From Isurus oxyrinchus (Eukaryota): a stretch of 64,000 nt of DNA. A program made the position numbers and the translations under genes. The stretch is taken from contig JANJGN010000042.1 in assembly GCA_026770705.1 (NCBI GenBank), positions 6,076,001 to 6,140,000 of the forward strand, written 5' to 3'. Below, one piece after another: positions 1,363 through 63,570 of the stretch. The notes beneath the pieces were generated by a model. The model was not told the DNA's origin. It searched no databases and was given only the letters and a program-made list of their open reading frames with translations. Positions within the stretch are counted from its first letter, which is position 1. Each line of letters starts with the position of its first letter.

Positions 1363-1412
1363 TTTTTTGTTTTTATCTCTGTGTTTAATTGACTGCCACT
1401 GCTCTTCAAGAA

Positions 1413-4156: not shown

Positions 4157-4556
4157 GCTCCCTCCCCCATCCTCACCCCCTTTCTGTTTCCCCCTTGCTT
4201 TTGTTTTTTCCAATAAATTATATAGATTTTTCTTTTCCAACCTATTTCCATTATTTTTAAATATTTTTAAATCTTTTATACACCCCCACCCCCACTAGAG
4301 CTATACCTTGAGTGCCCTACCATCCTTTCTTAATTAGCGCATTCGTTTAGATAATATCACCAACATTAACACCTATGTGTACTTTTGTTCTGTTGTTTGT
4401 GACACCTTTTGATGATCTGCTTCTATTACTGCCTGTTTGTCCCTACAACCACACCAACCAGCTCCACTTCTCTTTCTCTTCCCCCATCCAATCCACACCC
4501 CCCCCCCAACACACCTTAAACCAGTTTATATTTCACCCCTTTCGTGGACTCACTCA

Positions 4557-6901: not shown

Positions 6902-6971
6902 ATGCACGTCTCACCAAAAAGCCTGTTGTTTGCCATTTACTATCCCGTCCTTGCTGCTATCGGGATTCCGG
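6902..6971 (+). pseudogene. Exon 1 of GPR139/GPR142-like class A GPCR pseudogene
   Basis: MHVSPKSLLFAIYYPVLAAIGIP, then a phase-1 GT donor at 6972. Splices in frame to 9026, giving the TM1 motif GIPANL. Confidence 0.8.
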
Positions 6972-8772: not shown

Positions 8773-9025
8773 GTTGCTTGTTTCTCTATTGGTTCTCATT
8801 ATATTATTGTGCATTCCATTACAGTCAGCCCACCTATCTGTTTTAACTTGAATGATTATTTCAATTGATTCTAGTGCAAATAGTACTTTGCAACTCACTA
8901 TCACACCTCTGATGTATAAATATCACACCAACTCCTGTTACATGGATGTTTTTGTTGGAATCCAAGCAGTAACTTTCCAGGTTTATCACTGTCACACACA
9001 CTTTTTTTTTCTCTATATATTACAG

Positions 9026-9978
9026 CTAACCTGATCGTAATCCTGTCTTGAAGAAGATGTGGTCTCTCTAAATGTGTCACCTGCTACCTGGTGTCTATGG
9101 CGGTGACAGATCTCATGGTCATGGTCACAGCTGTGATATTAAATTGGATTTCTGGGATCTATTTCCCATCCAGTTTCCTGTCCATCACACCAATATGCAG
9201 CCTCCGCATTGTCCTAATTTACATAGCCATAGACAGTTCTGTCTGGTTAACCGTTGCTTTCACCTTTGATCGATTTATGGCCATTTGTTGCCACAAGCTG
9301 AAAATAAAATATTGTACTGAGGAGATAGCGGCGTGGGTGATTGGAACTGTGTGCACAGTAACCTGCGTAAAAAACACTTTCTTGTATTTTGTATACGAAC
9401 CTATGTACATAATTAACAATGTGCCCTGGTTCTGAATCCTAAAATTAATGTTTTATACGTCATCTGCTTGGGCTGCTTATGATTTAATTCGTTCTATTTT
9501 AATGCCCTGTCTTCCATTCATTCTCATTTTACTGCTCAATGCTCTGACCGTCAGACACATTCTACTGTCCAATAGAGCCCGCAGGAGACTCTGGGCCCAG
9601 AGCAATGGAGAGAATCAGAGTGACCCGGAGACGGAGAAGTGGAGAAAGTCAATGGTTTTGCTTTTCGCCATCTCGGGCAGTTTCATCCTGTTATATTTGT
9701 TATTTTTTGTTACGATCCTCTACGTCCGGATTGCAAAGGTCATTTATTTCTCAGGTTCTGATTTCGATGGATCGACATTTAACCTGGAAGAAACTGGATA
9801 TATGCTTCAGTATTTGAGTTCCAGCATCAACCTGTTCATTTATGCTGGGACCCAGAGTAAATTCAGAGGTGAGTTAAAGAATGGGGTGAAATATCCACTG
9901 AGCCTATTTGTTAAAATGTTTAATTTTTTTAAATGTCGAAAATGCAACATGAATTCTGCATTAAACTCCAACATTTAA
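9026..9978 (+). pseudogene. Exon 2 of GPR139/GPR142-like class A GPCR pseudogene
   Basis: Pyrimidine tract and AG acceptor at 9024-9025. ANLIVILS*RRCGLS..YLVSMAVTD, SVWLTVAFTFDRFMAIC (DRF), LPFILILLLNALTVRHIL and INLFIY (NPxxY variant). One frame with premature TGA at 9049 and 9433. Confidence 0.9.
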
Positions 9979-20390: not shown

Positions 20391-21546
20391 CACTGAACAC
20401 ACTGCACCTCACAAAGATCCCGCAAACTGCCTCCTCCCTGCGGCAGCACAGTGACCAACACTGAACACACTGCACCTCACAAAGATCCCGCAAACTGCCT
20501 CCTCCCTGTGGCAGCACAGTGACCAACACTGAACACACTGCACCTCACAAAGATCCCGCAAACTGCCTCCTCCCTGCGGCAGCACAGTGACCAACACTGA
20601 ACACACTGCACCTCACAAAGATCCCGCAAACTGCCTCCTCCCTGCGGCAGCACAGTGACCAACACTGAACACACTGCACCTCACAAGGATCCCGCAAACT
20701 GCCTCCCCCCTGTGGCAGCACAGTGACCAACACTGAACACACTGCACCTCACAAAGATCCCGCAAACTGCCTCCTCCCTGTGGCAGCACAGTGATCAACA
20801 CTGAACACACTGCACCTCACAAAGATTCCGCAAACTGCCTCCTCCCTGTGGCAGCACAGTGACCAACACTGAACACACTGCACCTCACAAAGATTCTGCA
20901 AACTGCCTCCTCCCTGCGGCAGCACAGTGACCAAAACTGAACACACTGCACCTCACAAAGATCCCGCAAACTGCCTCCTCCCTGCGGCAGCACAGTGACC
21001 AACACTGAACACACTGCACCTCACAAAAATCCCGCAAACTGCCTCCTCCCTGCGGCAGCACAGTGACCAACACTGAACGCAGTGCACCTCACAAAGTTCC
21101 CGCAAACTGCCTCCTCCCTGTGGCAGCACAGTGACCAACACTGAACACACTGCACCTCACAAAGATCCCGCAAACTGCCTCCTCCCTGCAGCAGCACAGT
21201 GACCAACACTGAACGCAGTGCACCTCACAAAGTTCCCGCAAACTGCCTCCTCCCTGCGGCAGCACAGTGACCAACACTGAACACACTGCACCTCACAAAG
21301 ATCCCGCAAACTGCCTCCTCCCTGCGGCAGCACAGTGATCAACACTGAACACACTGCACCTCACAAAGATCCCGCAAACTGCCTCCTCCCTGTGGCAGCA
21401 CAGTGACCAACACTGAATACACTGCACCTCACAAAGATCCCGCAAACTGCCTCCTCCCTGTGGCAGCACAGTGACCAACACTGAACACACTGCACCTCAC
21501 AAAGATTCTGCAAACTGCCTCCTCCCTGTGGCAGCTCAGGAACTGG
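20391..21546 (+). repeat. 68-bp minisatellite, 17 units plus degenerate flanks
   Basis: Unit cactgaacacactgcacctcacaaagatcccgcaaactgcctcctccctgcggcagcacagtgaccaa repeats with an exact 68-bp period, no indels and few substitutions. Confidence 0.98.
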
Positions 21547-21710
21547 CACTGAACATGTTGCACCTCACGGAGTCATCAGAAAATTACCACAGCCTACGGA
21601 ATGTCATGTTCACAGTGAACCTCACAGACAGATCAACAACTGCCTCACAGCCTGTCCTGTACAAGATGAAACCAAACTGCCCCACTTCGCTCGGCCCTTC
21701 CCCAGACAGT

Positions 21711-34849: not shown

Positions 34850-37425
34850 GAAGCCATATGTGTAGAATTTAAAAACAAAACACGAGCACATTTTGGGAAT
34901 GTACTATAGGCCCCCAATCAGTCAGAGAGAATTGGAAGAGAAGATATGTAGGAAAATATCATATAAGTGTAAAAATAATAGAGTATTAATGGTGGGGGGT
35001 TTCAATGCCCCCAACATTGTTTGGATTAATCATAGTGTTATACGTTTAGAGGGAACAGAATTTCTTAAAATGCATCCAGAAGTGCTTTTTTAAGCCTGTA
35101 CGTGGAAGGTCCAACACAACATGGGACGGTCCTGTAGCCGGGAAAGTGGTAGAGGTATCAATGGGGGAACATTTTGCATATAGTGATCAAAGCTCCATTA
35201 GATTCAAGATTGTTATGGTAAAGGACAAGGATGAGCCAGAAATCGGAGTTCTAAATTGGGGGAAGGCCGATTTTAATGAGTGCAGATATGATTTGGCCAG
35301 ATTGGACTGGGAGCAGCGACTTTAAAGTAAATCTGCCTCAGAACAGTGGGGCCCATTCAAGAAGGAAATGTAAAGAGTACAGGGCCAACATATTCCATTA
35401 AAGACAAAGGGTGAGACGAACAAATTCCGGGGACCCTGGATGTCGAGGGGTAGACAAGATTGGATAAAGAGAAAAGTGGAGGCTTACGAGAGATACTGAA
35501 GGCTCAAAACACCGGAATCCCTAGAGGAGTATAGAATGTGTAGGAGGAAGTTAAAAAGGAAATTAGGAGAGAAAAAAGGGGGCATCAAAAAACAGGTAAA
35601 ATATAGGGAAATGCAAAGTTATTTTACATGCATCTTAGGAGCAAGAGGATAAGTAGGGAAAGAGTAGGCTCCATTAAGGACCACGGTGGTAATTTGTGGG
35701 TGGAGCTGAAAGACGTAGGTATGTTCAAAATGAATACTTTGTGTCAGTGTTCACTGGTGAAAGGGACAACGTGGGTAAGGAAATCAGACAGAAGTACTGT
35801 AATATAATTAAGTAAATTAGCATAGAAAGAATGGAGTTCCTAAGTGGCCTGGCAGGCACAAAAGTAGATAAACTTCCAAGTCTGAATGAAATATGTCGCA
35901 GGCTGTTGACTGAGACATGGGAGGAGATTGCAGGGCCGCTGGCAATAACTTTCAGTACCTCTCTTTCCATCGCAGAGTTGCCAGAGGACAGGCAGCAGCC
36001 AACGTGGTGTCATTTTTCAAGAAGGGAGGAAAGAATAAACCAGGGAACTGCAGACCAGTCAGCCTCACCTCAGTGGTGGGGAAGCTATTGGAAGTAATTC
36101 TGAGAGACAAAATTAATCTACACTTGGAGAGGAAGTGTTTAGTCAAGGACAGTCAGCATGGCTTTGTTAGGAGGAGATCATGTCTGACCAATTTGATTGA
36201 ATTTTTCGAAACAGTGACTACTCATGTAGATGAGGACAATGCATTTGTGGTAGCCTACTTGGACTTCAGCAAGGCGTTTGGTAAGGCCCCGCATGGAAGA
36301 CTGATACCAAAGGTAAGAGCTCATGGGATCCAAGGCAATTTGGAAAATTGGATCCAGAATTGGCTGTGTGGAGGAAGCAGAGTGTGATGGCCGAGGTTTG
36401 CTTTTGTGACTGGATGTCTGTGTCCAGTGAGTTTCCACAGAGATCAGTGTTGCATCCTTCGCTATAAATGATTTAGACTTGAACATAGGAGGGTTGATTA
36501 GTAAATTCATAAATGACATTAAAATTGGTGGCATGGTAAATTGTGAGGGGGATAGCCTTAGATTACACGAGTTCATAGACGGTTGGTCAGATGGGCTGAT
36601 CAGTGGTAAATGGAATTTTATTCAGATAATTGTGAGATGATGAACTGGGGCAAGACAAAAAATGTACGGGAATACGTATTAAATGATAGGACCCTGGGAA
36701 ATATTGAGGGTCAGAGGTATCTCGGTGTACATGTCCACCGGTCCCTTAAGGTAGCAGGGCAGGTAGATAAGGTGGTTAAGAAGGTTTATAGGATACTTGC
36801 CTTTATTAGCCGAGGCATTGAGTATAAGTCAGGCATTTTATGCTGGAACTGAATAAAGCGCTAATTAGGCCCCAGCTAGAGTATTGTGTACAGTTCTGAA
36901 ATCCATATTATAGGAAGGATGAGATTGCACTAGAGAGAGTGCAGAAGAGATTTACCAGATGTTGCCTGGGCTGGGGAGTTTTAGTTAAGAGGAGAGATTG
37001 GATAGACTGGGGTTACTTTCCTTAGCACCGAGGAGATTGAGGGGGGATAGGATTGAGGTGTATAAAATTATGAGGAGTATAGATAGGGTAGACAGGAATG
37101 AACCTTTCTCCTCGGTGGAGAGATCAATAACTAGTGGCAATAGATTTAATGTAAGGGGCAGGACATTAAGGGGCGATGTGTGGAAGAATTCTTTAACCCC
37201 GAGGGTTGTGAAAATCTGCAACCCACTGCCTGAAAGGGTGGTAGATGCAGAACACCTCATAACATTTAAGAAGCATTTGGATATGCACTTGCGATGCCAT
37301 GGCATACAAGGCTATGGGTCTAGTGCTGGAAAATGGGATTAGAATTGTAAGGTACTTGTTTGACCGGCGCAGACTCGAAGGGCCGAAGGGCCTTTTTTAT
37401 GGTGTAGGCCTCCATGATCCTGTGA
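34850..37425 (+). mobile_element. CR1 LINE ORF2 (endonuclease part to 3' tail), frameshifted
   Basis: YYRPP..VGGFNAP; GNCRPVSLTSVVGKLLE..SQHGFVRRRSCLTNL..YLDFSKAF; LGLLSLAPRRLRGD. Confidence 0.92.
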
Positions 37426-42639: not shown

Positions 42640-43450
42640 CAGTGAGATTATCCATTTTGGTAGCAAAAACAAGAAGGCAGATTATTATCTGAATGGCTAT
42701 AAATTGAGAGAGGGGAATTTGCAACGACACTTGGGGATCCTTGTACACCAGTCGCTGAAGGTAAGGATGTAGGTGCAGCAGGCGATAAAGAAAGAAAATG
42801 GCATGTTGGCCTTCATACCGAGAGGATTCGAGTACAGGAGCAGGGATGTATAGCTGCAATTGTACAGGGCCTTGGTGAGACCATATCTCGAATATTGTGT
42901 TTAATTTTGGTCTCCTTATCTGATTAAGGATGTACTTGCTATAGAAGGAGTGGAGCAAAGATTTGCCCGAATGAATCCTGGTATAGTGAGACTGACATAT
43001 GAGGAGAGGTTGAGTCGATTAGGATTATATTCACTGGAGTTCAGAAGAATGAGGGGAGATCTCATAGAAACTTATAAAATTCTAAGAGGACTAGACAGGG
43101 TAGATGCAGGAAGAATGTTTCCGATGGTGGAGGAGTCCAGAGCTAGGGGTCACAGTCCGAGGATGTGGTGTAGACCATTTAGCCCTGAGATGAGGAGAAA
43201 TTTCTTCACACAGAGAGTGGTGAGCCTGTGGAATTCGTTACCACAGAAAGTAGTTGAGACCAAAACATTTGTGTGCTTTCAAGGAGTTAGATATAGCTCC
43301 TGGGGCGAAAGGGTTCAAAGGGTGTGAGGAGAAAGCAGAAGCAGGCTATTGAGTTGGATAATCAACCATGATCATAATGAAAGGCAGAGCAGTCTCGAAG
43401 GACTGAATGGCCTATTCCAGCTCCTTGCTTCTATGTTTCTATGTTTCTAT
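42640..43450 (+). mobile_element. CR1 LINE 3' end with short-repeat tail
   Basis: LTYEERLSRLGLYSLEFRRMRGDLIETYKIL..FFTQRVVSLWNSLP, ending (ttctatgt)2. Confidence 0.92.
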
Positions 43451-47030: not shown

Positions 47031-47230
47031 AAAATAGTATGAAAAGCAATCAGCGTGTATGGAAACAAGCTGAACATTGTGACCGTGAAGTATCTTCATT
47101 TTTAGTCAGCCGATCTGTCCACATTAATTGGATGCAGATTCGACTAGTGGGACTGTGACTGTGAACATAGAAGTCATAACCTAACCTATGGCAAACCCTA
47201 AGCTAACCACATTGCTAATGGTCTATCACT

Positions 47231-47270
47231 CCGCCCTATGCAAATCCGCCCATCCTCTTGATGTTTATAA
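47231..47270 (+). promoter_or_regulatory. IgNAR V promoter: GC box - octamer - GC box - TATA
   Basis: ccgccc (47231-47236), ATGCAAAT (47238-47245), ccgccc (47246-47251) and tttataa (47264-47270), about 100 bp before the leader ATG. Confidence 0.8.
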
Positions 47271-47363
47271 GGTCGGTGTTCTGCTACACACCGTTACACA
47301 GAACAGTTGATGTTGAGGTCTAGAGTTCGTTCTGCTTATGTTTTCCACACTGGTGAAGAAACA

Positions 47364-47406
47364 ATGAATATTTTCTGCCTTTCGCTCCTTTTAACCTGGT
47401 TACCAA
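47364..47406 (+). CDS. IgNAR: IgNAR leader exon (signal peptide)
   Basis: MNIFCLSLLLTWLP closely resembles known IgNAR leaders (MNIFLLSVLLALLP). Phase-1 donor gtaagt at 47407. Confidence 0.95.
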
Positions 47407-47548
47407 GTAAGTGCTGTTCGCTAAAAAAGAATGTACAGTAACTGGATAAATTAGTGTGGCTGCGCCCGTATTGTGTAATTTGCCTTTGCCTTTAAATGTT
47501 TTCATTGTTTCAGACCCGCAAGTTATTTAATATATTTTCTCCATTCAG

Positions 47549-47820
47549 GTACCTTCAGTGTTAGAGTGGACCAAACACCAAGAACGGCAACGAAAGAGAC
47601 AGGCGAAACTCTGACAATCAACTGCGTCCTAAAGGATACTAGCTGTAGCTTGTACTCTACATCATGGTTCCGGAAAAACCCGGGATCAACAGATTGGGAA
47701 GGGATAACCATTGGCGGCCGATATGTTGAATCAGTCAACAAGGGAAGCAACTCATTTTCCCTGCGAATCAATGACCTGACAGTTGAAGACAGTGTCACGT
47801 TTTACTGCAGAGCTGAAACT
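47549..47820 (+). CDS. IgNAR: IgNAR V exon (germline VNAR, type II-like)
   Basis: Acceptor cag ends at 47548. (S)[90 protein letters not shown] has the canonical Cys/Trp/Cys, no CDR2, and an extra CDR1 Cys. Confidence 0.97.
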
Positions 47821-47858
47821 CACAGTAATGAGTTTGAGCTTCTGCTCATACAAGAACA
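47821..47858 (+). other. V 3' recombination signal (22-bp spacer)
   Basis: CACAGTA - 22 nt - ACAAGAACA. Confidence 0.92.
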
Positions 47859-48048
47859 CCCTCGGATCTTCTGGTGATTAAAATAGGAACTGTTTCGTTT
47901 TTTCGCTCAAACGTTGCAGTCACAGATTCCCATCTGAGACCGGCGGAGTTGTGTAAATAACTGGTGATATTTTCAAGATCAGAAATCTCCGCAGTGAGAA
48001 TGCGGATTTGAAGTGCGGTTGTTCAATGTACAGCCCCGCATGTGAACG

Positions 48049-48131
48049 TATTTGTGCACTGGGCTGTACCACTGTGTACATACTATAGCTGCCACAGCAA
48101 TCGAGAAGACGGTTCCTGTAATACACAAACT
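48049..48131 (+). other. IgNAR: IgNAR D1 (48077-48092, tacatactatagctgc) with 12/23 RSS
   Basis: TATTTGTGC-12-CACTGTG [D1] CACAGCA-23-ACACAAACT. Confidence 0.92.
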
Positions 48132-48319
48132 ACCAGCAGAGATTATGTTTTAAAAGTGAGAACAGAGTCATCATATCTCAACGGGTTTAGCAGCAAGTTT
48201 TCGGTTTCTCAGTGATTTGGATGGGTTTAGTTATAAAAGGCTTAAAAGAACAATGTTGTGTTGTGTATACAGATAGTGTATACATCAAAACTGAGAGCGT
48301 TGCATTACTGCACGTGCGA

Positions 48320-48397
48320 CCTTTTTGCACTGATCCCTATGACTGTGTGACTGGTGTGCCACAGTGATGAATCCTGGATTCGCATAATACACAAACT
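48320..48397 (+). other. IgNAR: IgNAR D2 (48348-48359, tgactggtgtgc) with 12/22 RSS
   Basis: CCTTTTTGC-12-GACTGTG [D2] CACAGTG-22-ACACAAACT. Confidence 0.92.
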
Positions 48398-48712
48398 TCC
48401 CCACACCTCTTAAGGCAAAGCGAACAGATATCACTTTCTGAATGGCTAAGATATCTCATGACTAAATATTTATTATCTTCGTCAGACAGTGCCTGGTATT
48501 TTAAAGGCTTTTTTCTAGCTATTTAGGTGGTTATTTTATAAATTTTATAAATGTCATCTTCATAATGGAACACTTTACATTCGCCAGGATTTTTCTAGTG
48601 GGTGAGAATTATAGACATCTAAGGGATCCTAACATAAAGGCAACGATTTACCACATTTTTCAATCAATTTTTTGAACACCTGAAGGATTTATTGTAAAGT
48701 TTTGGAGAATGG

Positions 48713-48780
48713 ATTTATTGTGTTGGAATGAATTGATGTGTAACTGCTATGACACAGTGACTCGGGCCACAGCACAAACC
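48713..48780 (+). other. IgNAR: IgNAR D3 (48741-48752, taactgctatga) with 12/12 RSS
   Basis: ATTTATTGT-12-TGATGTG [D3] CACAGTG-12-GCACAAACC. Confidence 0.88.
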
Positions 48781-49095
48781 TCCCCGACAGTTATTTACTT
48801 TACTGCTCGTGAATATGGCTGAATAATCTACTTTCTTACACTTGATCTCTTGCTGCACAGAGGTTGAAATCAATTCCTGATCGACTTTTGTTTGGAATCT
48901 ATCCGCATTCCCAGTAAAATTGAAACACTGGATTGTCTTTTTCAATGTTACAAAAAGCCCCATTGCTCATACGAACTATCGGCACGGACAGAAACGGACA
49001 GAAAATAAAGTTTTATTAAGGAATAAAAAATATGCAACATGTCCTTGGATCCGTCTTGCTTTGGAATATTTATTGCCAAACTCTTCTTCGTTGAT

Positions 49096-49134
49096 ACTTT
49101 TTGAACTGGGCTGACTGGGAGCTGACTGACTGTG
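49096..49134 (-). other. J 5' recombination signal (23-bp spacer)
   Basis: ACTTTTTGA-23-GACTGTG as read on the + strand. Confidence 0.9.
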
Positions 49135-49182
49135 ACTATAACAACTACGATGGGGCTGGCACGGTGCTGACTGTGAACTCTG
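49135..49182 (+). CDS. IgNAR: IgNAR J segment
   Basis: YNNYDGAGTVLTVNS contains the VNAR FR4 motif. Phase-1 donor gtaagt at 49183. Confidence 0.95.
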
Positions 49183-50447
49183 GTAAGTGACCTTTCTTTC
49201 TAATTTGTTAATAAGATTTTGTACATATAGGATAAGAAGAATTAATGTTCTCATTCAAATCGGCTGAAGCAGGTTTGTGATGTTCGCAGCTCTTTCCAGG
49301 ACCTGATTGGTTTGACTGTCAGTCAACTTCGAACGGGCTTAGAACTTTGTTATTTCAAAAGGTATTTCTTTCGAGAATCTAGTGAAATTGGTTTTAGGTT
49401 TATAACTTATCTGTCACATAACACTTAAGATAGTTGTTTAGAAAGATGGTGATGTTTTAAATACTTAAAACGGAAGCGGATTTGCAAAGTTCCTCCTTAC
49501 TGAGATGTTCCTTCACAAAGTAGAGGCAACAATTCTAATCCGAAAAGTTAATACAATGTTGCAGTGAGGAATGGTTTCTGAAAGCAAATAAATGATGCGT
49601 GCTATTATTTTGTAAAACACAGCTTACGATTTATTACTCCCTCTAAACCTTTTATCGTTCTCTATGACAAAGATTTACGTTAATATCGGAACAGAACCTT
49701 AAAAATCTGTTGTCCATTCGCACCTGGAGATTTGTGACTTTTGATTTAAGGGCACAAGTCAGTGACCTAGAAAGTGACTCACTGGGCATGACACTGGTCT
49801 GTCCAAGTGGCGTTAAAGGTGCGCTAGAAATTGAGAAACCTATTTTACAAGCGCCAGCTTCCCCCACCAGCCCCCCTCCTCCCACCCCCCGACCCCCCCC
49901 CCCCCCCCCCCGCCCCACCACCCCCCACTCGGTTGACGTGGACTACAATGTCATCGTTTTAATTTCTCATCAAGGAAAAATGACAGTGAAACCAGTCGAG
50001 TTTCCTAAAGGAGATTGAAATGTTCTGTGAACTTCAATGGAAATTAGACAGTATAAGGTGAAACACTAACTAGCGATTCGCTATCAGGTTGTGTTGTATT
50101 ACCAACGACAACCAATTTCAGCTCTGGACTGCAATGATATGGGAATCATGTTTCCATGGAATCCTGTATCCTAGACCTGTATTTCAGCTGATAGCGGCGC
50201 TCTGTGTTTATGATTAGGAGGAACAGCAGAGAGCTTTGAAACAACAGCAGGTTACAATGTTCCAATTATATTCTCTTTTAAATTCGATGCATGGAAATAA
50301 AGTAAGAGCTGCTCCCCAACCACCCCCTCCCTGCCCCTTTATTTAAAGCTTTATTGAGAATGGTGAAGCTTTTTCTAACACTTGGTATGTTATACCGTTC
50401 ATTGCCTTACTGTATTTGAAGAAGAAATTTGTTAATTTGGGATCTGA

Positions 50448-50632
50448 GGGCTGGAAATCCGTCCCTGGTGGTAGTGCAAAGACGGGCGGTTTTGGCTCGG
50501 CCGCCTGTTTAAAGCAGCATCTGATGTTATGTTTCACTGACTGCAATGGGCGTTACATCAGGCACTGCACATAATAGCTGCCGATCCGCTTCTGCCCGAT
50601 TTGCGCCATCGGCAGAGATGAACCTTTAGCCC
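50448..50632. mobile_element. Short MITE-like element
   Basis: CpG-rich patch bounded by imperfect inverted ends gggctggaa...tttagccc. Confidence 0.35.
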
Positions 50633-52149
50633 ATTAACACTGAGAAGGTAGGGGTGAGATGCAGACTGGACTAGGAGCATTGCTGAGGTTGAAGGGAATC
50701 GCTGCATAGATGGAACAGTCATTAATAGAAAAGTGCAATATTCTATGAAAGCTGAAAAATAAAACACGTGGCGATAAACTGGTATCGCTTCCATTACCTG
50801 GAGTCATACAGGTTGTTCCACCCATAGAATTCCTTCTCTCTGCAACTGATGCTCCCCAATTTAAGCTACGTTAAAACTGTTAACTTTCCCTTGAGCTGTT
50901 ACAGGACCGATAAAGCAGGCATTCATTTATTGACATAAAAATGTTTTAAACCCTTTATCAAATAGTGTAAAGAGGAAGATTAAATGCTAATTGCGGTTCC
51001 CTGAAGTCGGAAAAGGAGGTTTTGTGGCTTAATATCATTCCTTGCCTTTACTGACAAATCAACGGGTAAAACGTTGGTTGCAACATATACTTCAATAATA
51101 TTCACATTCTCAACATCAGAGGGAAATAATTTTATATAGTTTTTTTTCCAACTTGGCAAATGATTGTTAATTTAAGACTTCCATTGGCCATAATTATGCA
51201 GCTGATTAAATTGTTCACTTCCTCATCCCCATTTCCGCACTCCATCTTTTATTTTTGCAGACACGTATCAATTTTTACTCAGTTTTGTACACTTTCATCA
51301 ACTGTAATTTGTGATACATTTTATTTTTCTCCGAATTTTCCATTTTTTTAGGCTGCCTATATAATCTCCTATAAAAATCCTTCCCAACTTTGCCCATGTT
51401 ATCTTCCCGACATATCTGAAGAATGATTGTTTGCAATTTTCACTCGAACACATTCAAGTCCATAAATAATGGTAATTGCCTTCACCTTTATGACTCCAGA
51501 AGATGACTTATCATTATTTGCTCCACCCTTATCCTGTGTATTCCTTTACCACTGCTCAAATAATTAAACTGCATTGCTAACACTCCATATCTCTGGCACA
51601 GGTTCAGTCCAAAGATATTTGGAAGTTTCTCGATAAATCATCTGCTCTTTGTCTGTTATCGATATTTTAGGCTATGTGCCATCAATTACCTCTTGCAGTT
51701 TCTTATTTTTTTTTCCAATTTCAACTTAACGTTCTCACATTTGAACTCCTCCACACCATGCCCTTCTAACATTCAATCTTTATGAAAGTATTTTATTTTC
51801 AGTCGAGGCAAACCCCGTGTTTATCCTTGCGTTTTTTTTATTTTTTTCATCTTCCCGAAGTAAATCTCATTCTTCGTCCATTTTCAAATCGTATCTTCCC
51901 ATTTGTCTTGTGCCACTGTGTAACTAGTTTCTTATTCTTACTGGTTAGCCAAGGAACGTTTTGTGGCAACGAATGACACGACAGTAATGTACTGTTCTCA
52001 TATCGCAGTGAGAGAGCCCAAAAGATCCAATATAGAGAGAGGACTCTAGGAATAAAAACCACCCTTTATTTAATGCTAATTCCTGTAAACTACTAATATT
52101 AAGGCAGAACTGCATGAAAACTCCTCCCAGAAAATGAGAAATAATACAT

Positions 52150-54560
52150 ATAAAATTGTGAAACATTTTCAATGATATGTTAATGGACCTGACACAGGAT
52201 GATTGGAATCATAAATTGATAGTTAAAACCACAAACGTATAATAGATCTTTAAAGAGAAAATGGCTCGGGTACAGGGTAGACACATTTCCATGAAATGAA
52301 AGGGAAGAACATCAAACTGGAATTCCATGAATGACTAAACGTAGAAATTAATATGAAGCAGAATCGCAATGCTTATGGGAAATGTATGTTTCATAAGTAC
52401 AGAAGCAAATTGAGCATATAATGTAAAGGGCGAACGAGAAAAACAGAATAATAGTGGCAATGTATGTGAATATATATATGCCTTTAAAATAAAAGGCAAA
52501 CTCAAAGTGTTTCATAACTTCTTTTATGAGCACCTAAGCAGTAGGATTGTCAAAGGAAGTGTGAGGATAATTAGGCACCGAAACCTATATTGTTCTGGCG
52601 GTAAAGGGCGTGGCAGAGGCAAAAATAAATAGTTTACTTGTGCCTTCACTGAAAAAGTTGCTTAATTCTGTCAATGTCACAGTAAGTTGGGGGCACTAAG
52701 GAAACTGAAGAGATTCGATATATTTAAAAACGTTACTTAAATGTTAGCAGCGCTTAAAGAAGAAAAAAATCACATGGACGGATGGAATGCTGATAGAAGC
52801 AAGTGATGAAACAGTTAAAGCTACCACCACAGCCTTCAAACCTCCTTAGATATGACAGTGGTCCTGGAAGACTGGGTGTTCCAAAATGTTGTACCCGGGC
52901 ACACAAAGCGGAGAACTTGAAAAATGCAGCCAATCAGCCCAGAAGTAGAAATGTGGAAAACTGTACAGACGATAATGCGGCGAAAATTAATTGGTACTCT
53001 CATTAGTTACAAGCAAACGGAGTTTGTTAAAGGAAAATTATGTTTAACTATCTTGGATGAATTTTTGATGGTGTAGCAGAGACGGTTGTTGAGCTCAGTG
53101 CAGGTGATGCTGAGTATATGGACCTACAAATATTGTTTGCTTAAGCATCAAAACTAAAGTCCACGGGGTTAAAATGGAGGCGACAGGCTGAATACAAGAT
53201 TTGGGAAGGGATAGAAGTCACCAAATAATGGTTCTGAATTATTGTTTCTGATTGGAAGAAATTGCCCGTTGTCAGCCCGGGGCGGTTTGAGAACTATTGT
53301 TCTTTCTGATACATATTAATGACCTGGACTCAGGGATACGGGGCAGAATTTCAAAGATTTCAGATGGCATGCAATGTGTAAATATAATGAAGAGCTAACG
53401 TAGTCTGACTGGTCAACTGGGTTGATGCATTGCAGGTTCTGTTAAATGCAGGGAAGTGTTGTGGTATAGGTTTTTGATGGATGAATGAGAAATTGTAACA
53501 AAAACTAAATAATCAGTTCTTAGTCGGTGGAGAAGGGGACTGGAATCGAGCGACCTGGGGCCGCATGCACAGTGATCTTGAAGGTGGCAGACATTTGCAG
53601 TTGTTTCATAAAGCATAAGGTAATAAGGTTATGCTAAACTTAAAATAATGTCAGGAAGAAATATTAATCGATGCAATGTAATTGTTTTTTTAAATAGGGG
53701 TTTAGTCTGTGTGTGTTAATTGGACTAAAGGCAGCTTGCCTGCCTGCTTTGATGTATACTAATTTTGAGATGTAAACAGTATGCTAGGGTGCATTTGCAT
53801 TTTGTTGAATGCAGCATTCGAGAAGCAGAGCGAAAACTTGCACTAAGCCAAGAGAAACAAAGCAATGTCTATATTACTAACAAAATTGGTATTGTGAAAG
53901 GCGTTCAAATGACCTGGTGATAGAATGAACAACTGCATTCAAAGGGGAAGGCTCGGTATATGCGTAAGAGTTCTGTGTGTTAAACCAGAGTCATGTAAGG
54001 TCAAAAGCTGTAAGCCTACAGCTGCCTGCAAAGGAACCAACTTGAAAGGAAACTCATTTTCAATTCATAAGATGAAATTGCTTTGCCGGGGCTCTGGTTA
54101 AGTCTATTGGCTATTTTTGCCTTCTTGGAGATTAATTTGGAAATTTGTTATAAGTTATGTTAATAATTTGTAGAAATGTTTATGTGTTCAATGCCTTGTT
54201 GTCTATTCATAAATGTATCATTTAGTTTGATATAATAACCACTGAAGGGTTGAGGGGGTTCATTTCTGAATTCAGAGTTGCATCTCAAACGCACCAATTG
54301 AAAATGTAGATAATGACAGTTGTTTAAAGTTTCCATCTGGGATTTTAAAGGTTAGCCTTTATCAACAGTTGTGTCATAACAGTAAGAATAGTGCTTAAGA
54401 ACCATTTGGAATAATGTGCCTAATTATGTGAACTGCAGATAAGGGATGATGTTAACATCTTAGCAAGGGCATAGAGGAAATAAGCTATAATAGTACATGT
54501 GACACGGGATTTAACTTATGAAGCAACTTAGATGAACTTGGATTGTTATCATTAGCCGAT
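52150..54560 (+). mobile_element. Old CR1 LINE remnant in the J-C intron, interrupted at 53677-54381
   Basis: gagtttgttaaaggaaaattatgtttaacta, gatgctgagtatatggacctacaaa and atacatattaatgacctggac (RT motifs), all heavily decayed. Confidence 0.65.
53677..54381. mobile_element. Probable solo LTR (705 bp)
   Basis: Ends TGTAAT...ATAACA, flanked by gcaa/gtaa (possible 4-bp TSD with one mismatch). Interrupts CR1 sequence. Confidence 0.5.
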
Positions 54561-54779
54561 GCGAACAAAAACATTTGGAGTGAGCTGATGTGCCGCTTCA
54601 TCTTGTTCCACCATTTGATGATATCATGAATGATTTGAGTGTGTCCTAAATTCTTTTTTGCTGTCGAATATGAATCCCATTATTTCAGAAAATTTTGTTT
54701 GAAAATGTTTCCAGGTGAAGTTACAAAACCATAGTGCTCCATAAACATGAAAGATAAAACAGGTTATCGATAGCAGTTA

Positions 54780-55720
54780 ACAAACAAAACTTGGACTTAC
54801 ATTATCTTCAGCGCAATGAAACTTCCCAATGCACTTCAGAGGAGTCTTAAAAGCCAAACCAATGAGATACGTAAGGTGATAATTAGGAGAATGGCTAATG
54901 TTTGGTTAAAAAAAACGCTGGATAAGGGGTGAAGTTTCGAGAGGGAATTCTAGTGCTTCGGTCCTTAGGGCGGGCAGGGGTGCAATTAAAATCAGAGAAG
55001 CTTTATTTGGCAGGCCCACATTTTTGGAAACTTACGTAGCTGGATGACTTTACAGGGTGTGGGATGTTCAAGATCATGGATGGATGGGAATTTAAAAATC
55101 AATGCTTTGGTTGAACGGGGCACAATGCCATTCAGCAAGCAGAAGGTGATTGGTGAATGGTACTTAAAGTGATTAATACACGGGCAGTAGTTTTCGATGA
55201 CCTAAAGTTCACTGAGGATAGAATGTGGGCTATTGGCTACAAGTGCATTGGAATAGCCAAATCTAAAGGGAATAAAGGTATGAATGAAGCTGCAGCATAG
55301 ATTGTGGAGAAGTGTGAGCGGAGTGGGAAGATCTTCCTGAGGTTTAAATAGACTGTCGGAGCAATGGAGCAAATATATGGTCAGAAACTGGTCTTGGGGT
55401 CAAATAATTACACCAAAGTGGCAAAGACTGTGATACAGCCTCAGCCATTGACAGACAGAGGGGTGGAACCGGCTTCAAGGGAGTGGAATGTGCAGCTGGT
55501 TCTGAAGATTACGGCTTCAGCATTCCCGATATTTAGTTGGGCGAAATTACTGTTAATCTAGGACTGAATGTCGGGCATTAGTCTGGCAATTTCATGACAT
55601 TGGAGGAGTCGATAGTGGTGGTGGTGGTGTAGAATTCAGCATCATCATCATAGAGGTGAAAATTAATGGTGTGGTTTCAGATAACATCGCCGAGGGGCAG
55701 GGTTTAAATGGGAAATGACA
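54780..55720 (-). mobile_element. Decayed L2-like LINE
   Basis: The minus strand near 55650 reads cacctctatgatgatgatgct (HLYDDDA, a decayed YADD motif). Similar to 45410-46200. Confidence 0.6.
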
Positions 55721-56570
55721 GAGAAAGAATCAATGTGCATTCAATATTTGACAATCACTACTTAGCAGAGCAAAAGTGAAGAAATATTAGACCTACATCA
55801 CTGACAACAGTTAAGTCATAAATTAACAAGTGCTCACAATCAGCGTTTGCTGCAGGTCAACCCACAATGCCCAATACACGCGTTGGGACTCTTAAAGTAC
55901 CAAGCACTATAAAATTGGTCTTATCGTAAAACCCCTAAATTGGGCCCGAGCCATTTGCTCTCTATGTAAGCTTGATGCTTGTGGATCCTCCGCAGCAGAG
56001 CCTCTACCAATCAGAGCCATTTTCCAACATTCAGCAATCTTTAATGAACAAAACAAAGAGGAGCAGGAGTAGGCCATTTGGCCTCTCAAGCCTGCCCCGT
56101 CTTTCAATAAAATGAGAACTGATCTGCCCCAGGCCACAACTCCTCTTTCTTGCCAGCTCCTCATAGCTCTCAACTTCCTGATATTGCAAAAGCACATCCA
56201 TCTCCTCTTTAAGTACTTTCGGTAGCCTAGCCTCCACAACACTCTGGGGTAAAGAATTCCAGGCATTGACTACCCTCTGAGAGGCCAAATTCCGTTGCAT
56301 CTCATCTTCAAATGATTGTCCCTTTATTTTCTAACCATGTCCCCTAGTTTTAGATTTCCCCAGTGGTGGAAATATTTTCTCAACGCCTACCCTGCCAAGC
56401 AACCTCAGGATTTTGTGCGTTTCACTAAGATAACACTCATTCTTCAAAACTCTAATGGATAAAGGCCGAAACTGTTTAGCCATTCTTGATAAGTCAACTC
56501 CTTCATTCCATGAATCAGCCCAGTGAATATCTTTTGAACTGCCTTCAATGCGACTACTTCCTTTCTTAAA

Positions 56571-58255
56571 TGTGTTGAATGAATACTTCTCATGCGTCTT
56601 CACAGAAGAGAATGAGGATGAAAAGTTCGAACTATTGGAGAGAGATTGCGAGGTTGTTAAGCAAATTGACATTGGGACTGACAAGATATTGGAGTTGTTG
56701 GCAGGCTTAGAGGTGGACAAACCTCCAGGTCCAGATGATTTATGTCCCAAACTGCTGAGGGGGGCAGGTATCTGGCCCAAATTTTTAATTCCCCTATGGC
56801 CATCGGGGATGTGCCTGAGGACTGGAGAACAGCGAATTTGGTTCCGCTATTGAAGAAGGGGTATGGAGATAAGCCAGAAACCTACACACCAGTGAGTCTC
56901 ACATCAGTGGTAGGGAAACTATTGGAGAAAATTCTGAAGGATAGAACCGACCTACATTTGGAGAGGCAAGGCTTGAACAGGGATATTCAGCATGGCTTTG
57001 TCAGAGGGAGGCCATGCCTAACAAATTTGCTTCACTTTTTTGAGAAGGGGACCAGGCGGGTAGATGAGGGTACTGCTGTTGATGTAGTTTATGTGGATTT
57101 CAGCAAATCCTTTGATTAGTTCCCACATGGGAGACTTATACAGAGGGCAAATGCGCATGGGATACAGGGTAATTTATAAGGTGGATTCAAAATTCGCTTA
57201 GTTGTCTGAGACAGAGGGTGATGACACAGGGATGCTTTAGTGACTGGAAACCAGCGTCCATTGGCGTACCACAGGGATGTGTGCTGGGTCCCCTTTTATT
57301 CATCATTCATATAAACGGCATATAAGACTATGTGGGGGGTAGGATTAGTGAGTTTTCGGATGGCACAAAGATTTCCCAGATGTTTAACAGTGAGGTAGGG
57401 TGTCTTGGGTAACAGGAATATATGTAAAGGATGGTCAAATGGGCAGATAAGTGGTGGATGGGATTTAACCCTGAAAAGTATGAGGTGATATGCTTTGGAA
57501 GGAGTAATTTGACAAGGAAGAATTCAAATGAAAGGCACGACAGGAGGAAGTTCTGAGGAACAAAGGGGCCTTGGCGTGTGTGTCCCTAGATGTCTGAAGG
57601 CGGAGCGTCATGTTCGTCGGGTGGTGAAAAAAGCATATAAGACACTTGCCTTTATCAATCGAGGCATAGATTACAAAACTAGGGAGGACATCTTGGAGAA
57701 GTATAGAACCTTGGTGAGGCCACAGCTGGAGTAACATGTGCAGTTCTGGTCTCTCCATGATTGCAGTGGAGGAGGTGCAGAGGAGATTCACCAGGATGAT
57801 GCCTAGGATGAAACATTTAAGTTATGAAGAGAGGTTGTATGGACTGGGTTTGTGGTCGTTGGAGCAGCGAACATTGAGGGGCGTTCTGATCGAGGTGTAC
57901 AAGATTATGAGGTGCATATACAGGGTGGATAGGGAACAGCTGTTCTCCTTAGTTGAAGGGTCAGTCACGAAGGGACATAAGTTCATGGTGAGGGGCAGGA
58001 GGCTTAGGTGGGATGTGAGGAAAAACATTTTTACCCAGAGGGTTTTGACATTCTGGAATGCGCTGAATTGGAGGGTGGTGGAGGCAGGTTGCCTCACATC
58101 CTTTAAAAAGTTCCTGGATGAGCACTTGGCACATCATAACATTTAAGATTATGGGACATGTGCTGGTGAATTGGATTAGGTAGGTAGATCTCACGTGTCG
58201 GTGCAGACTCGATGGGCCAAAGGGCCCCTTCTGCACTGTGTGATTCAGTGATTCT
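56571..58255 (+). mobile_element. CR1 LINE (RT to tail), nested insert
   Basis: VLNEYFSCVFTEE..PGPDDL; VPEDWRTANLVPL..QHGFVRGRPCLTNL..YVDFSKSFD; tail ctgcactgtgtgattc. Confidence 0.9.
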
Positions 58256-58449
58256 CTGAAAATCAGGAACCAAAACTACAGACAGTGCTCCAGGTGCGGC
58301 CTCAACAAGGCCCTCCACATTTGTAAAAATACTTCCTGTTTTTACACTTTAACCCCCTAGCAATACAGACCAAAATCCATTTGCCTTATTAATCACCTGT
58401 TGCACCTGTTTGATAACTTTGTTTTTGTGCTTCATGTGCAATGTTGTTC

Positions 58450-59815
58450 CACCGGTGAGTGGTATGGAAATTATTGGAGAAGATTCTTTGTGACAGGATG
58501 TACTAGCATTTGGATGCAAATGGGTGTATTAGTGAGAGGCAGCATGGTTTTTGAAGGAAAGGTCGTGGTCTCACTAACTTGACCGAGTTTCCGAGGAAGT
58601 GACAAAGATGATCGACGATGGAAGGGCGGTGGATTCTATCTACATAGATTTCAGTAAGGCCTTTGACAATGTCCCTCATTGCAGACTGGCACAGAAGGTA
58701 AAGTCGCACGGCATCAGATGTGAGTTGGTAAGATGGATGCAGAATTGCCTTGGTCATAGAAGACAAAGGGTAGCAGTGGAAGGTTGCTTTTCTGAATGGA
58801 GAGGTGTGATCGGTGGATTTCCACAGTGATCAGTGATGGGACATTGGTTGTTTGTAGGATATGTAAATAATTTGGAAGAAAATGTTACTGGGTTAATCAG
58901 TAAGTTTGCAGACGACACTAATTTTGGAGGAGTTGCAGATAGTGAAGAGGATTGTCAAAGGATACAATGGGATATAGATAGGTTGGAGACTTGGGCGGAG
59001 AAATGGCACATGGAGTTTAATCCCGACAAATGGGAGGTATTGCCTTTTGGAAAGTCTAATACAGGTAGGAATTATACAGTAAATGGCAGAAACTTTGAGT
59101 GAATCGACGGGCAAAGGGATCTGGGTGTACAGATCCACAGGCCACTGAAAGTGGCAACACAGTTGGATAACATAGTCATGAAGGCATATGGCATGCTTGC
59201 CTTCATCAGCAGGGTTATTGAATCTTAAAGCCTGGAAGTCATGCTGCAGCTGTATAGAACCTTGGTTAGGCCAGACTGGGATTATTGCTTGAAGTTCTCG
59301 TCACCACATTACTAGAAGGATATGGAGGCGTTGGAGAGGGTGCAGAGGAGGTTTTGCAGGATGCTGCTGGTCTGTAGGTTATTGTATATGAAGAGAGGTT
59401 GGAGAAACTCGGATTGTTCTCATTAGAACAACAGAGATTGAGAGGCGACTTGATAGAAGTTTACAAAATTATGAGTGGCATGAACAGAGTAGATAGAAGC
59501 TTTTTTTCCCAGGGTGGAAGAGTCAATTACTAGGGGACATATATTGAAGGTGAGAGGAGAAAACTTAATAGGAGATGAGCAGGGCAAGCTTTTTACCCAG
59601 AGTGTAGTGAGTGTCTGGAATTTGCTGCCAGAGGAGGTGGTGGAAGCAGGTACGATAGTGGTGTTTAAGAGGCAGCTTGACAAATACATGAATAGGATGG
59701 GAATAGAGGGATATGGACCCCGGAGTTGTACAATGTTTTAGTCTGACAAGCAGTATGATCGGCGCAAGCTTGGAGTGCCGAAGGTCCTGTTCCTGTGCTG
59801 TACTTTTCTTTGTTA
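58450..59815 (+). mobile_element. CR1 LINE (RT to tail), nested insert
   Basis: YIDFSKAFDNVPH; ISKFADDT; VWNLLPEEVVEAG; tail cctgttcctgtgctgtac. Confidence 0.9.
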
Positions 59816-60305
59816 TTGGTTCTATAACTACCAGATCCGTCTCTGCTGCACGTTTTTGGAGCATCTCTCAATTTAAATAATAGTCTGACTTTTGCTTCTT
59901 CCTACCATAGTGCATAACCTCACACTTTTCTGCAGTAAGCTATATCTGCAAGTTTTTCCCACTTACTCAACCCATCTATATTCCCTTGCCAATTGATTAT
60001 GCGTTCATCACAACATGCCCTCCCACCTATTTTATATTGTCTGCAAATTTGGATATATCACACTCTGCCCCGACTCCAAGTAATTAATATTGATAGTAAA
60101 TAATTGAGGCCCTTGGACTGAACTTTGTGGTTTTTCCACCTGAAAAAAAACATTAAATACCGATTCCTTATCTTCCCTGTGATAGTCAATCCTTAATCCA
60201 TGCTAATGCATTACCCGCAATACGTGAGCTCCTGGCTTGTGCGTCTGTTTTGTCATGCGGTATAAATATGTCATTTCCCCTGAGAGTAAAAAATTTCTTG
60301 CGAAC

Positions 60306-60339
60306 TATCCTGATGAGTGCAAGACGAAAATCATCGACA
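60306..60339 (+). ncRNA. Minimal hammerhead ribozyme-like motif in the IgNAR J-C intron
   Basis: tatc-CTGATGA-gt(gcaag)ac-GAAA-atc-ATC-gaca. Core boxes are perfect but the stems are weak. Confidence 0.55.
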
Positions 60340-61289
60340 GAAAAATCATTTTTTCAGCAATATTTGAATTGTTATTCAAGACCTGACTTCCTTTATGACA
60401 ATATTCCCATTCTCATGTGTTGCTTGTAACAGGCTGAGTGGGAGCAGATATGGAGCTGACTGCAAGAATGTTGGGTGGCATCCTGTTTTTCATTCTGCTG
60501 GCCAGCAGATATAAGGGGTCCATTAATATTTAATTTAACACCACTGCAGCCACCTCCATACCTGCTCCCAGGCAGCTTTCATAAGCAGAAATATAACATG
60601 CAAGCAATAATGGTGCATTAGTTTCATACCTGCTCCGACTGATCCCTTTCTACCAATGTACTTCTTTTAAAATAGCTTGAGGAAAGTTCCAATTTCCATA
60701 GCTACCTGCAACAGGCATTGGTGATAAATCATTAAAATAAATTTCAAATGCGTACTACCGGTTTGTGGATTCCATCCTGAGCAGTCTCCACGCCCGCTAA
60801 TATCGGCCCTAAATAAATAAATAAACAGCTTTCTAAGTTCACAGCCAAATTTCCATTATTACAGGGTCGGGTTGGATGAAGGACATGGACTTTTGCCGAG
60901 CCCTTGGAAGCGAAATGCAACTTCCTGATTAGAGCATAAATTGACTCCCAATAGTTGCAGTTCAGTTCCCTCCCGCTTAAGCGGTGACCTTCTCATATGT
61001 GCGCCGATATGACGGAAGGAAATTCCAGGAAATTTTATTGTATTATGTGAACGGGTCGGTAAAGCTTCAATTGCTGTTATTAAGATAATAATAATATTGA
61101 TAATCTCTAATCTGTCCGCCATTTGTGTTGCACCCGGTGCAGACTAGGGCCGTGAGTCATTCATATTATCTTAAGAATCTGGCCTCTATTTTAGGTAAGA
61201 TTTCAGGTGGTGTCACATTCCATTGCATTGCTACGATAATAATAGAAATGACAATTAACAAAGCGCAAATATTCCAATAAATAATTGAG

Positions 61290-61535
61290 GAAAAAGTTGA
61301 ATTTCTATTGTGTCTTCCAGGTCCTCAGAACACCACATAGCGCCTTACAAACTATGAGATTATTTTTGAAGCGCAGGCACCATTGTCCTGTAAGAAACCC
61401 GGCAGTTAATTTGCTCATACCAAGCTCCTATAATGAGCCTGTGACTGCAATATCTGATTTAGATTTTGGCCAAGGGATAAATACTGGTGGAGATATGTTG
61501 GAAACGATTTATCGTACTTTTAGTAAAGAACTAAG
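61290..61535 (-). mobile_element. Deu-type SINE 3' fragment abutting the C1 acceptor
   Basis: Similar to 24520-24700 and 14295-14460 (cagttaatttgctcat, agggataaatactgg). Confidence 0.5.
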
Positions 61536-61557
61536 ATGTTTTTTTTTCTAATTTTAG

Positions 61558-61872
61558 GGCCGACTCCTCCAATAATAAGTCTCTTCTACCTCGAAAATTC
61601 CGAACTGAGAGCAAAGGGTTTTGTGCAGCTGCTTTGCCTCATCAGGGAGTACAAGCCAGAAAGCATTGGGGTGACCTGGCAAAAGAACGGAAATAGCATA
61701 GACTCTGGCTTTACCACTACGCCCCCAGCTAAATCATCGAAAGGAGACTTCAGCTCCACGAGCTTCCTGAATGTGCCTCTTCAGGAATGGAGCAGCGGTT
61801 CCGTGTACAGATGCCAAGTGACCCATTCCGCAACCAACAGTAACAAGCAGAAAGAAATTCGATCAACGTCAG
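61558..61872 (+). CDS. IgNAR: IgNAR constant domain C1 exon
   Basis: Acceptor ttttag ends at 61557; donor gtgagg at 61873; 315 nt, phase 1-1. GPTPPIISLFY..FVQLLCLI..VTWQKN..VPLQEWSSGSVYRCQVTHSATNSNKQKEIRSTS matches IgNAR C1 as I recall it from nurse shark. Confidence 0.95.
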
Positions 61873-62269
61873 GTGAGGAAATGGAACCAGTTCATACGGT
61901 TTGCAGATGTCAAACATGGTTACTTTATTAGCATCTGATTAATTGGGATTGTTATTGCAATAATTTATCATTTCGGATTCAAGGTCCTGGAACAGGCAAC
62001 ACTGAGTGTGATCAGTGACAGAGCAAGATGCAGTGAAACACTACAATAAAATTTGCTGGAAGAGTTTCAGCAGCATTGACCAATGCATTTGATGGTGCTC
62101 TTTCAAAAAGGTAGTGAGTGTCATGAACGGCCGAATGGTCTCCTGCTGCTCTCTCGCATTCTGTATTGCACCGGCAATGCCTGAAGTTCAGGATGGTGCT
62201 CATAGTCGGGCGAATTTTGCAAAATTCTTTTCCATGGCGCCTTCTGATGAATGTTATGCTCTGGTTAAT

Positions 62270-63570
62270 GTGCACATTGAGCATAATCTTGCTTTGAGCA
62301 TTGAGCATATTGACTTCTTTGAAAATGTGACAAGCAAAGTGGGCAATGGTGATCCTGAAGATGTAATATATCTGGACTTCCAGAAGGCCTTTCTTAAGGT
62401 GCCACACAAAAGATTAATACACAAAATAAGATTACACGGTGTTAGGGGTAACACATTAGCTTGGATAGAGGATTGGCATAACCAACAGAAAGCAGAGATT
62501 CGGGATAAATGGGTCTTTTTCTGGATAGCAAGCTGTAACAACTAGTGGTGTGCCCCGCGGTTCGGTCCTTGGGCCCCAACTATTTACCATCTATGTTAAT
62601 AACTTGGATTCAGAGATAGGAGATACCATAACCAAATTTGCAGATGACATCAAAATAGGTGGGAAAGTAAATTGCAATGAAAAAGAAATAAATTTACAAA
62701 TGGATATGGACAGGTTAGGTGAATAGGCCGAGATTTTGCAGAGGGAGTTTAACGTGGATAAGTGTGAGGTTATCCATTTTGGTCGAAAGAATAAAAAGGC
62801 TACTTATTGTTTAAATGGAGAGAAACTTCAGAATCCTTCAGTGCAGAGGGATCTGGATATCCTTGTGCATGAATCGCTGAAAGGTAGCATGCAGGTACAG
62901 CAGGTAATAAGGAAGGCAAATGGAATTTTGGCATTTATTGCTCAAAGCATAGAATATAAAAATAGGGAAGTGTTTGTTGCAAGTAGGCAAGGCATTGGTG
63001 AGACTGCACCTGGGGTATGGTGCACAGATTCACCCTTACTTGAGGAAGGATATAGCTGCACTGGATGTGGTTCAGAGGAGGTTCACTCGATTGATTCCAG
63101 CGATGCGAGGCTTGTCTTAAGAGGAGAGATTGAGCATTTTAGGCCTATACTCGCTAGAGTTTAGAAGGATGACAGGAGATCTAATTGAGGTATATAAGAT
63201 GCTAAAGGGGATAGACAAAGTAGACATGGAGCGGATGTTTCTCTTTCTGGGGCTTTCTAGAACAGGAGACCATAGCTTTTGTCTAACGGGTGGTAGTGTT
63301 AAATCAGAGATGAGGAGGAATTACTTTTCTCAAAACGTCGTGAACCTGTGGAATTCACCACCTCAGAGTACAGTTGATGCTGGGACGCTGAATAAATTTA
63401 AGGAGGAGATAGACAGATTTTTAATTAATAATGGGTTTAAAGGTTATGGGGAGAGGGGGGAAATTGGAGTTGAGGCCAAAATGAGATCGGCCATGATCGT
63501 ATTGAATGGCGGGGCAGGCTCGAGGGGCTGAATTGCCAACTCCTGCTCCTCGTTCTCATGTTCTTATAAC
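62270..63570 (+). mobile_element. CR1 LINE RT and 3' end in the intron after C1
   Basis: DVIYLDFQKAFLKVPHKRL; KFADD; [20 protein letters not shown]. Confidence 0.92.

Follow-up and report, generated by a model that had tools for sequence, protein, structure and literature searches.

Layout and identity of the cluster

We analysed a 64,000-nt window of the Isurus oxyrinchus genome (contig JANJGN010000042.1, positions 6,076,001 to 6,140,000; all coordinates below are those of the window), which contains a cluster for the new antigen receptor immunoglobulin of sharks (IgNAR), a system known since 1995. The assignment to IgNAR is virtually certain. Within the window the cluster comprises three D and a single V, J and C1, with neighbouring segments from V to J spaced by 255–382 nt. 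The parts are listed here; X1, X4, X15 and X17 denote sequencing runs of an organism A that are treated further below.

47364-47406, + strand: leader exon, 43 nt, ending in phase 1; the joint 47406-47549 with GT..AG is present in an X4 contig
142 nt, + strand: leader–V intron, GT-AG
47549-47820, + strand: VNAR exon, framework region (FR) 1 to FR3b; leader and V open; type II cysteine pattern
48077-48092, + strand: D1, 16 nt, cysteine in one frame; D1–D2 joint in X1
48348-48359, + strand: D2, 12 nt, cysteine in one frame
48741-48752, + strand: D3, 12 nt, cysteine in one frame; D3–J joint in X1
49135-49182, + strand: J segment with a phase-1 GT donor and no FR4 cysteine
49183-61557, + strand: J–C1 intron, 12,375 nt, with decayed reverse-transcriptase pieces resembling long interspersed nuclear elements (LINE-like)
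61558-61872, + strand: IgNAR C1 exon, 315 nt, open, with both core cysteines and the tryptophan

Every part lies where a preliminary description of this DNA had placed it, in the order L-V-D1-D2-D3-J-C1 on the + strand, and its canonical, phase-compatible splice sites were recovered as GT-AG and phase 1 throughout. The description had also called every segment open, which holds for leader, V, J and C1, all devoid of stops, frameshifts and splice lesions and with J and C1 joined in an open frame, but not for the D segments: each has a stop in one of the three forward frames and is open in two, with a cysteine in one other frame. The absence of germline joining likewise stands, all three D being separate with signals on both sides. 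The C1 acceptor is the only one of eight in-frame AG sites within the 360 nt upstream that yields an open J–C1 frame; the other seven, considered as hinge variants, all run into stops. A tblastn search with five full-length IgNAR proteins revealed no second V or J, no C2–C5 and no tail in the window, which ends 2.1 kb past C1.

In Pfam, V matches the V-set and C1 the C1-set family. The V search against the PDB returned VNAR or new antigen receptor entries for nearly all of the top 30 matches (best 4HGK and 7SPO), and the alignment to solved VNARs is gap-free at 64–76% identity. It is equally gap-free with all of 11 VNAR-bearing proteins (56–85%), with the core cysteines 61 residues apart. By its translation, the segment is a VNAR-type V domain, predicted to be devoid of the complementarity-determining region (CDR) 2 and the C′ and C″ strands. 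For C1 the best single-domain PDB match is a novel antigen receptor (4Q97), extending over all 104 residues, although by summed score it is outranked by a multi-domain IgA chain. Among proteins, a model from the basking shark Cetorhinus maximus comes closest, with 85% identity for V (76/89) and 88% for C1 (92/104), followed by Triakis scyllium (81% and 75%), Heterodontus francisci (76% and 71%) and Chiloscyllium (63% and 64%), identities that make a lamniform origin likely. The germline gene may be unannotated, as first suggested: no identical protein was among the database matches returned, and the nearest entry is a mis-fused model. The J is identical at 14 of 16 positions to the J region of the basking-shark model P0017, and at 40 of 40 nt to record 29 of run X4.

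The cysteines of the V translation (P0001) are found at residues 25, 32 and 86 only, corresponding to an extra CDR1 cysteine and none in FR2, and its tryptophans at residues 39 and 49 only, leaving CDR1 without one. Type II VNARs are characterized by an extra CDR1 cysteine and none in FR2 or FR4 (PMC4622739, PMC11641339; here and below, citations refer to excerpts of the articles named). With a cysteine in CDR1 and none in FR2 or J, the encoded domain is type II as judged from its cysteine pattern. Type I was rejected for want of cysteines in FR2 or J (FR4), and type III for want of its conserved CDR1 tryptophan. The CDR1 cysteine is flanked by AGC codons, in line with a hypermutation hotspot reported for type II. 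Separately, codon 47698-47700 at an FR2/hypervariable region 2 (HV2) position encodes glycine, versus arginine in Triakis and Heterodontus and tryptophan in the basking shark, marking a variable site rather than a clear lesion.

Recombination signals and putative promoter

The segments are flanked by eight recombination signals, for which mismatches were counted over 16 positions of the consensus.

47821-47858, + strand: V 3′ signal, 22-nt spacer, 3 mismatches
48049-48076, − strand: D1 5′ signal, 12-nt spacer, 4 mismatches
48093-48131, + strand: D1 3′ signal, 23-nt spacer, 4 mismatches
48320-48347, − strand: D2 5′ signal, 12-nt spacer, 4 mismatches
48360-48397, + strand: D2 3′ signal, 22-nt spacer, 2 mismatches
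48713-48740, − strand: D3 5′ signal, 12-nt spacer, 6 mismatches, heptamer CACATCA, the weakest of the eight
48753-48780, + strand: D3 3′ signal, 12-nt spacer, 2 mismatches
49096-49134, − strand: J 5′ signal, 23-nt spacer, 4 mismatches

The spacers run V22 / 12-D1-23 / 12-D2-22 / 12-D3-12 / 23-J, exactly as first described. With two to six mismatches in 16, the signals lie some way from consensus, and a scan allowing three mismatches finds only three of the eight. The probability of a chance arrangement was assessed at the loosest stringency admitting all eight, a threshold set after seeing them. At this setting the window contains 182 signal-like matches, whereas the full ordered chain occurs just once and not at all in reverse orientation; it likewise appeared in none of the first-order Markov simulations, 3000 covering the 1.4-kb region and 60 the whole window. 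At 444-460 there is a solitary D-like pair of signals, which has 11 mismatches and was taken as chance. The translation of the V signal is identical over 14 residues in P0017, indicating that its unusual nonamer is shared and not a lesion. Enumeration yielded four deletional paths obeying the 12/23 rule, all of which lead through D3 and make the D3 5′ signal obligatory.

Upstream of the leader we identified a putative promoter.

47238-47245, + strand: exact immunoglobulin octamer ATGCAAAT between two CCGCCC (GC) boxes, likely a promoter element
47264-47270, + strand: TATA-like box, 18 nt 3′ of the octamer
47296, + strand: likely transcription start, as a hint only, 30 nt past TATAA

Two X4 contigs begin at 47296 behind an identical stretch of 16 non-genomic letters ending in a run of G, which we take to be a template-switch adaptor from complementary DNA synthesis; contigs of this kind cannot prove a start. 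The window contains seven octamers in 64 kb, so that the chance of finding one in a given 200 nt is about 0.02, and the octamer at 47238 is the only one of the four in + orientation with a TATA within 50 nt. It is unchanged among the differences listed, while contigs of sister clusters vary at the adjoining bases 47246-47262. Together, octamer and TATA box likely drive a transcript from about 47296. An octamer with a TATA box is the standard promoter of B-cell immunoglobulin (Ig) genes (PMC13043367), and shark light-chain genes have the same arrangement (PMC2193156). Shark IgH genes are stated to be without the octamer in the excerpts of PMC2435157, an IgM study in which IgNAR is never named. 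We found no report of an IgNAR octamer in the literature searched, a search outside which the primary IgNAR gene papers lie. The promoter and the bottleneck at the D3 5′ signal are two additions to the preliminary description, the former of which may already be known. Other octamers occur within the J–C1 intron (53793 and 58514) and past C1 (63771).

Transcript-like contigs and the standing of this copy

A search of sequencing runs returned 23, of which 20 contain part of the stretch; none is on record as RNA, and the tally was counted neither for nor against expression. Four of the 23, all from organism A (X1, X4, X15 and X17), were aligned to 47200-49400 at 90% likeness, and only the differences and pieces listed, such as the 40 best-supported differences, were considered. 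In X4 the leader is spliced to V at exactly the annotated junction. Record 29 of the same run (2078 nt) follows V to 47817, continues with 46 other letters and enters J at 49144-49183 without a difference, an in-frame join that yields a CDR3 of 20 residues. Past J, the first 30 of its remaining 1899 nt match the window at 61559-61588 in 28 positions, as compared by eye, and the remainder would have the size expected for C1–C5, a secretory tail and a 3′ end, given that C1–C5 plus secretory tail of protein P0018 take up 1635 nt of coding sequence. X1 provides a D1–D2 joint that retains the two outer signals and a D3–J joint that retains the D3 5′ flank, either of them in a single contig with a depth of about 3; D pieces inside an X1 loose end at 47814 were dropped as too weak. 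As the genome-sized run X17 (about 91% read) shows none of the five joints, they are likely somatic, with a pre-joined sister cluster as a possible other source.

The same runs contain close relatives of the cluster. X17 holds 72 near-copy records, of which 20 are at 99% or more, 31 at 95–99% and 21 at 90–95%, and at least three V 5′ ends (47549-47565) occur among the organism A contigs (X1, X4, X15 and X17), two of them spliced to the leader at the same site. Organism A has several sister IgNAR clusters, more than one of which is transcribed. In X15, a stack of 2,600–4,400 depth covers the V exon (47490-47790), with an adaptor-like loose end beside a TTAA site; this run presumably represents a restriction- or capture-based DNA library.

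Taken together, we regard the locus as a germline, unjoined type II IgNAR cluster and this copy as probably functional. Several observations weigh against the latter. That the runs are RNA is only a guess. The transcript-like contigs differ from the window by 2–9%, and among those listed none is identical to it across V: X4 record 27 has 7 of 206 and record 29 has 2 of 93 letters unlike the window V. Record 29 further shares 47810 G>A with DNA contigs of sister clusters and differs at 2 of 30 letters at the C1 start. Both J joints may use a sister J, since they begin at 49144, as does an X17 DNA contig. At several sites the entire X17 depth disagrees with the window, so that organism A may be a close relative and not the same species. 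Because the contigs differ and sister clusters exist, expression is established for the family and not for this copy. The preliminary claim of a functional cluster consequently splits: spliced and rearranged contigs bear it out for the gene family in organism A, and for this copy it is only likely. Rearranged transcripts matching V, J and C1, proposed as the check, were found at family level and are not assignable to this copy.

The most serious alternative, which we consider unlikely but far from negligible, is a silent or crippled recent duplicate that has lost its downstream exons or carries too weak a D3 5′ signal, the transcripts stemming from its sisters. It would account for the offset of the contigs and for the bases that they share with sister DNA contigs, and the obligatory D3 5′ signal, with 6 mismatches the worst of the eight, is consistent with it. 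Such copies are common, which also counts against a functional assignment: one of three clusters is unexpressed in the nurse shark (PMC11641339) and three of seven are incomplete in the bamboo shark (PMC8692893). Arguing for a working copy instead, leader, V, J and C1 are free of lesions, and the D3 heptamer retains its CAC. This heptamer is unchanged among the 40 best-supported differences, though 48727 varies, a weak sign that the sisters share it. In addition, the spliced X4 record 27 carries the bases of this copy at 47556, 47561 and 47565, where sister V genes differ.

That near-identical sister clusters were collapsed or chimerically assembled here, so that the sequence is not one real allele, appears very improbable. 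The many near copies in X17 and its depth unlike the window at several positions would fit such an origin, as would the fact that among the pieces listed none spans the stretch; but contigs by their construction end at repeats, X17 does not have to come from the source individual, the window contains no N letters, and X15 record 10, the piece of highest depth listed, matches 47490-47607 (118 nt) without a difference. A NARTCR unit (NAR V-D-J) of the T-cell receptor (TCR) delta locus also uses a rearranging NAR-type V (PMC12227049), but its probability here is negligible: the next Ig exon is IgNAR C1 without a supporting TCR V, none of 21 open reading frames (ORFs) of at least 85 aa in the J–C1 intron matches an Ig family, and the J-bearing contig passes directly into C1-like letters, so that with no other Ig exon in the window we exclude it. 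We give just as little credence to a developmental cluster, of type III or joined in the germline, whose CDR3 would be restricted. Type III also carries the CDR1 cysteine and is not pre-joined in the spiny dogfish (PMC4622739), but the CDR1 tryptophan is missing here and three separate D segments are flanked by signals.

Predicted assembly, surroundings and comparison with known clusters

For the IgNAR family it is established that RAG joins V, three D and J inside a cluster, where up to four joints give a long CDR3, and that hypermutation follows, with a light-chain-free dimer as the product (PMC4622739, PMC5192425, PMC8692893); secretion of the homodimer without light chain is a family property (PMC5192425). 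The V-3D-J-C arrangement of the window, in its unjoined germline form, is the plan given in the same three sources, so that the preliminary account of the cluster plan, of up to four joins, of a long CDR3 and of a light-chain-free antibody agrees with what is known of the family. For the functional copy that we favour, RAG would cut at the eight signals in the developing B cell under the 12/23 rule, with 22 serving as 23, and V, up to three D and J would be joined within 1.3 kb, with ends trimmed and bases added at as many as four joints. The D3 5′ signal is the predicted slow step, because it is the weakest and all four paths pass D3; D1–D2 and D3–J intermediates, for which the two X1 contigs are anecdotal, would both wait at it. 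A D-encoded cysteine would pair with the CDR1 cysteine, as the type II definition suggests. The transcript would likely start at the octamer and TATA promoter about 47296, with the leader spliced to V and J spliced to C1 across 12.4 kb, as the J-bearing contig runs into C1-like letters. C1 would be followed by C2–C5 and a secretory or membrane tail past the window, and the resulting protein would form a homodimer without light chains and mature by hypermutation. Use as a VNAR scaffold, as first proposed, is plausible as a prediction.

More tentatively, and in our view rather doubtful, both additions may be combined: OCT/OCA-B factors acting on an octamer and TATA promoter of the light-chain/tetrapod type, reportedly missing from shark IgM heavy-chain clusters, would decide IgNAR fate in the B cell, and the D3 5′ signal would gate the D2-to-D3 join. 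If so, D1–D2 and D3–J intermediates would pile up because the D2-to-D3 join comes last, which would bear on isotype choice, called an open question in PMC11641339, and on the order of IgNAR joins, called undetermined in PMC4622739. For shark IgM, joins are unordered, with a locus-specific bias ascribed to signal efficiency (PMC2435157).

Elsewhere in the window, a reverse-transcriptase ORF of 582 aa (1389-3962, +; RVT_1) is likely a young Penelope-type retroelement, the frame after it holding what we take to be a GIY-YIG-like motif. A pseudogene of a rhodopsin-family seven-transmembrane (7-TM) receptor with two in-frame stops is located at 9001-9978 (+), with a possible first exon near 6878-6975, and a minisatellite of 17.3 copies of a 68-nt unit (95% matches) spans 20391-21568. 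Decayed LINE-like reverse-transcriptase copies, about 74% alike, occur at 35900-37340, 42650-43330, 56500-59800 and 62090-63530, at least two within the J–C1 intron and one past C1. An imperfect 56-nt C tract (49871-49926) is found 0.7 kb into this intron.

The preliminary description rightly called the system known, as the cluster is an unremarkable member of a family already well known, and germline IgNAR maps exist for nurse and bamboo sharks (PMC11641339, PMC8692893). We found no description of lamniform germline IgNAR in the literature searched, where figures and most subscription papers were outside view; the excerpts of PMC12907318 and PMC11767079 name no such study, and one paper among those found reports its annotations to be without IgNAR. 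The gain, modest as it is, is a base-level germline map of V, three D, J, eight signals, promoter and C1, as needed for repertoire analysis and for primers of VNAR libraries, and the octamer and D3 bottleneck offer testable leads on the regulation and order of IgNAR assembly in sharks.

The cluster resembles the type II clusters of the nurse shark (GcIgNAR2, PMC11641339) and the whitespotted bamboo shark (IgNAR1, PMC8692893) in having one V, three D and one J, one exon per C domain, spacers of 12, 22 and 23 nt, the CDR1 cysteine and a gap-free VNAR framework. In contrast to these similarities, identity to orectolobiform sequences is only 63–71% for V and 64–69% for C1, the C1 has two cysteines versus three in the nurse shark, and no D is pre-joined, whereas three of four complete bamboo shark clusters contain pre-joined D (PMC8692893). 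The secretory IgNARs of Triakis scyllium and Heterodontus francisci share the V lineage, the CDR1 cysteine, the J ending and the C1 start, but are known as rearranged proteins. The basking-shark locus LOC144673922 (P0017, Cetorhinus maximus) has a 7-TM receptor upstream of IgNAR, as does the window, where the pseudogene at 9001-9978 is 51% identical to the G-protein-coupled receptor (GPCR) part of P0017, suggesting a shared GPCR–IgNAR neighbourhood; unlike P0017, which has a membrane-tail-like piece before IgNAR, the window has no tail exon upstream. P0017 itself, named 'uncharacterized protein' in the database, was fused automatically from a GPCR, a piece resembling a membrane tail, a repeat and a complete IgNAR (V, C1–C5, tail) and reads through the V signal; automatic annotation thus mishandles loci of this kind, and the chimeric model should be re-annotated. 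Finally, the shark IgM miniloci (PMC2435157) share the cluster plan, a spacing of a few hundred bases between segments, and partial D-D and D-J products, and differ from the window in having two D and light-chain pairing and in being stated to be without an upstream octamer.

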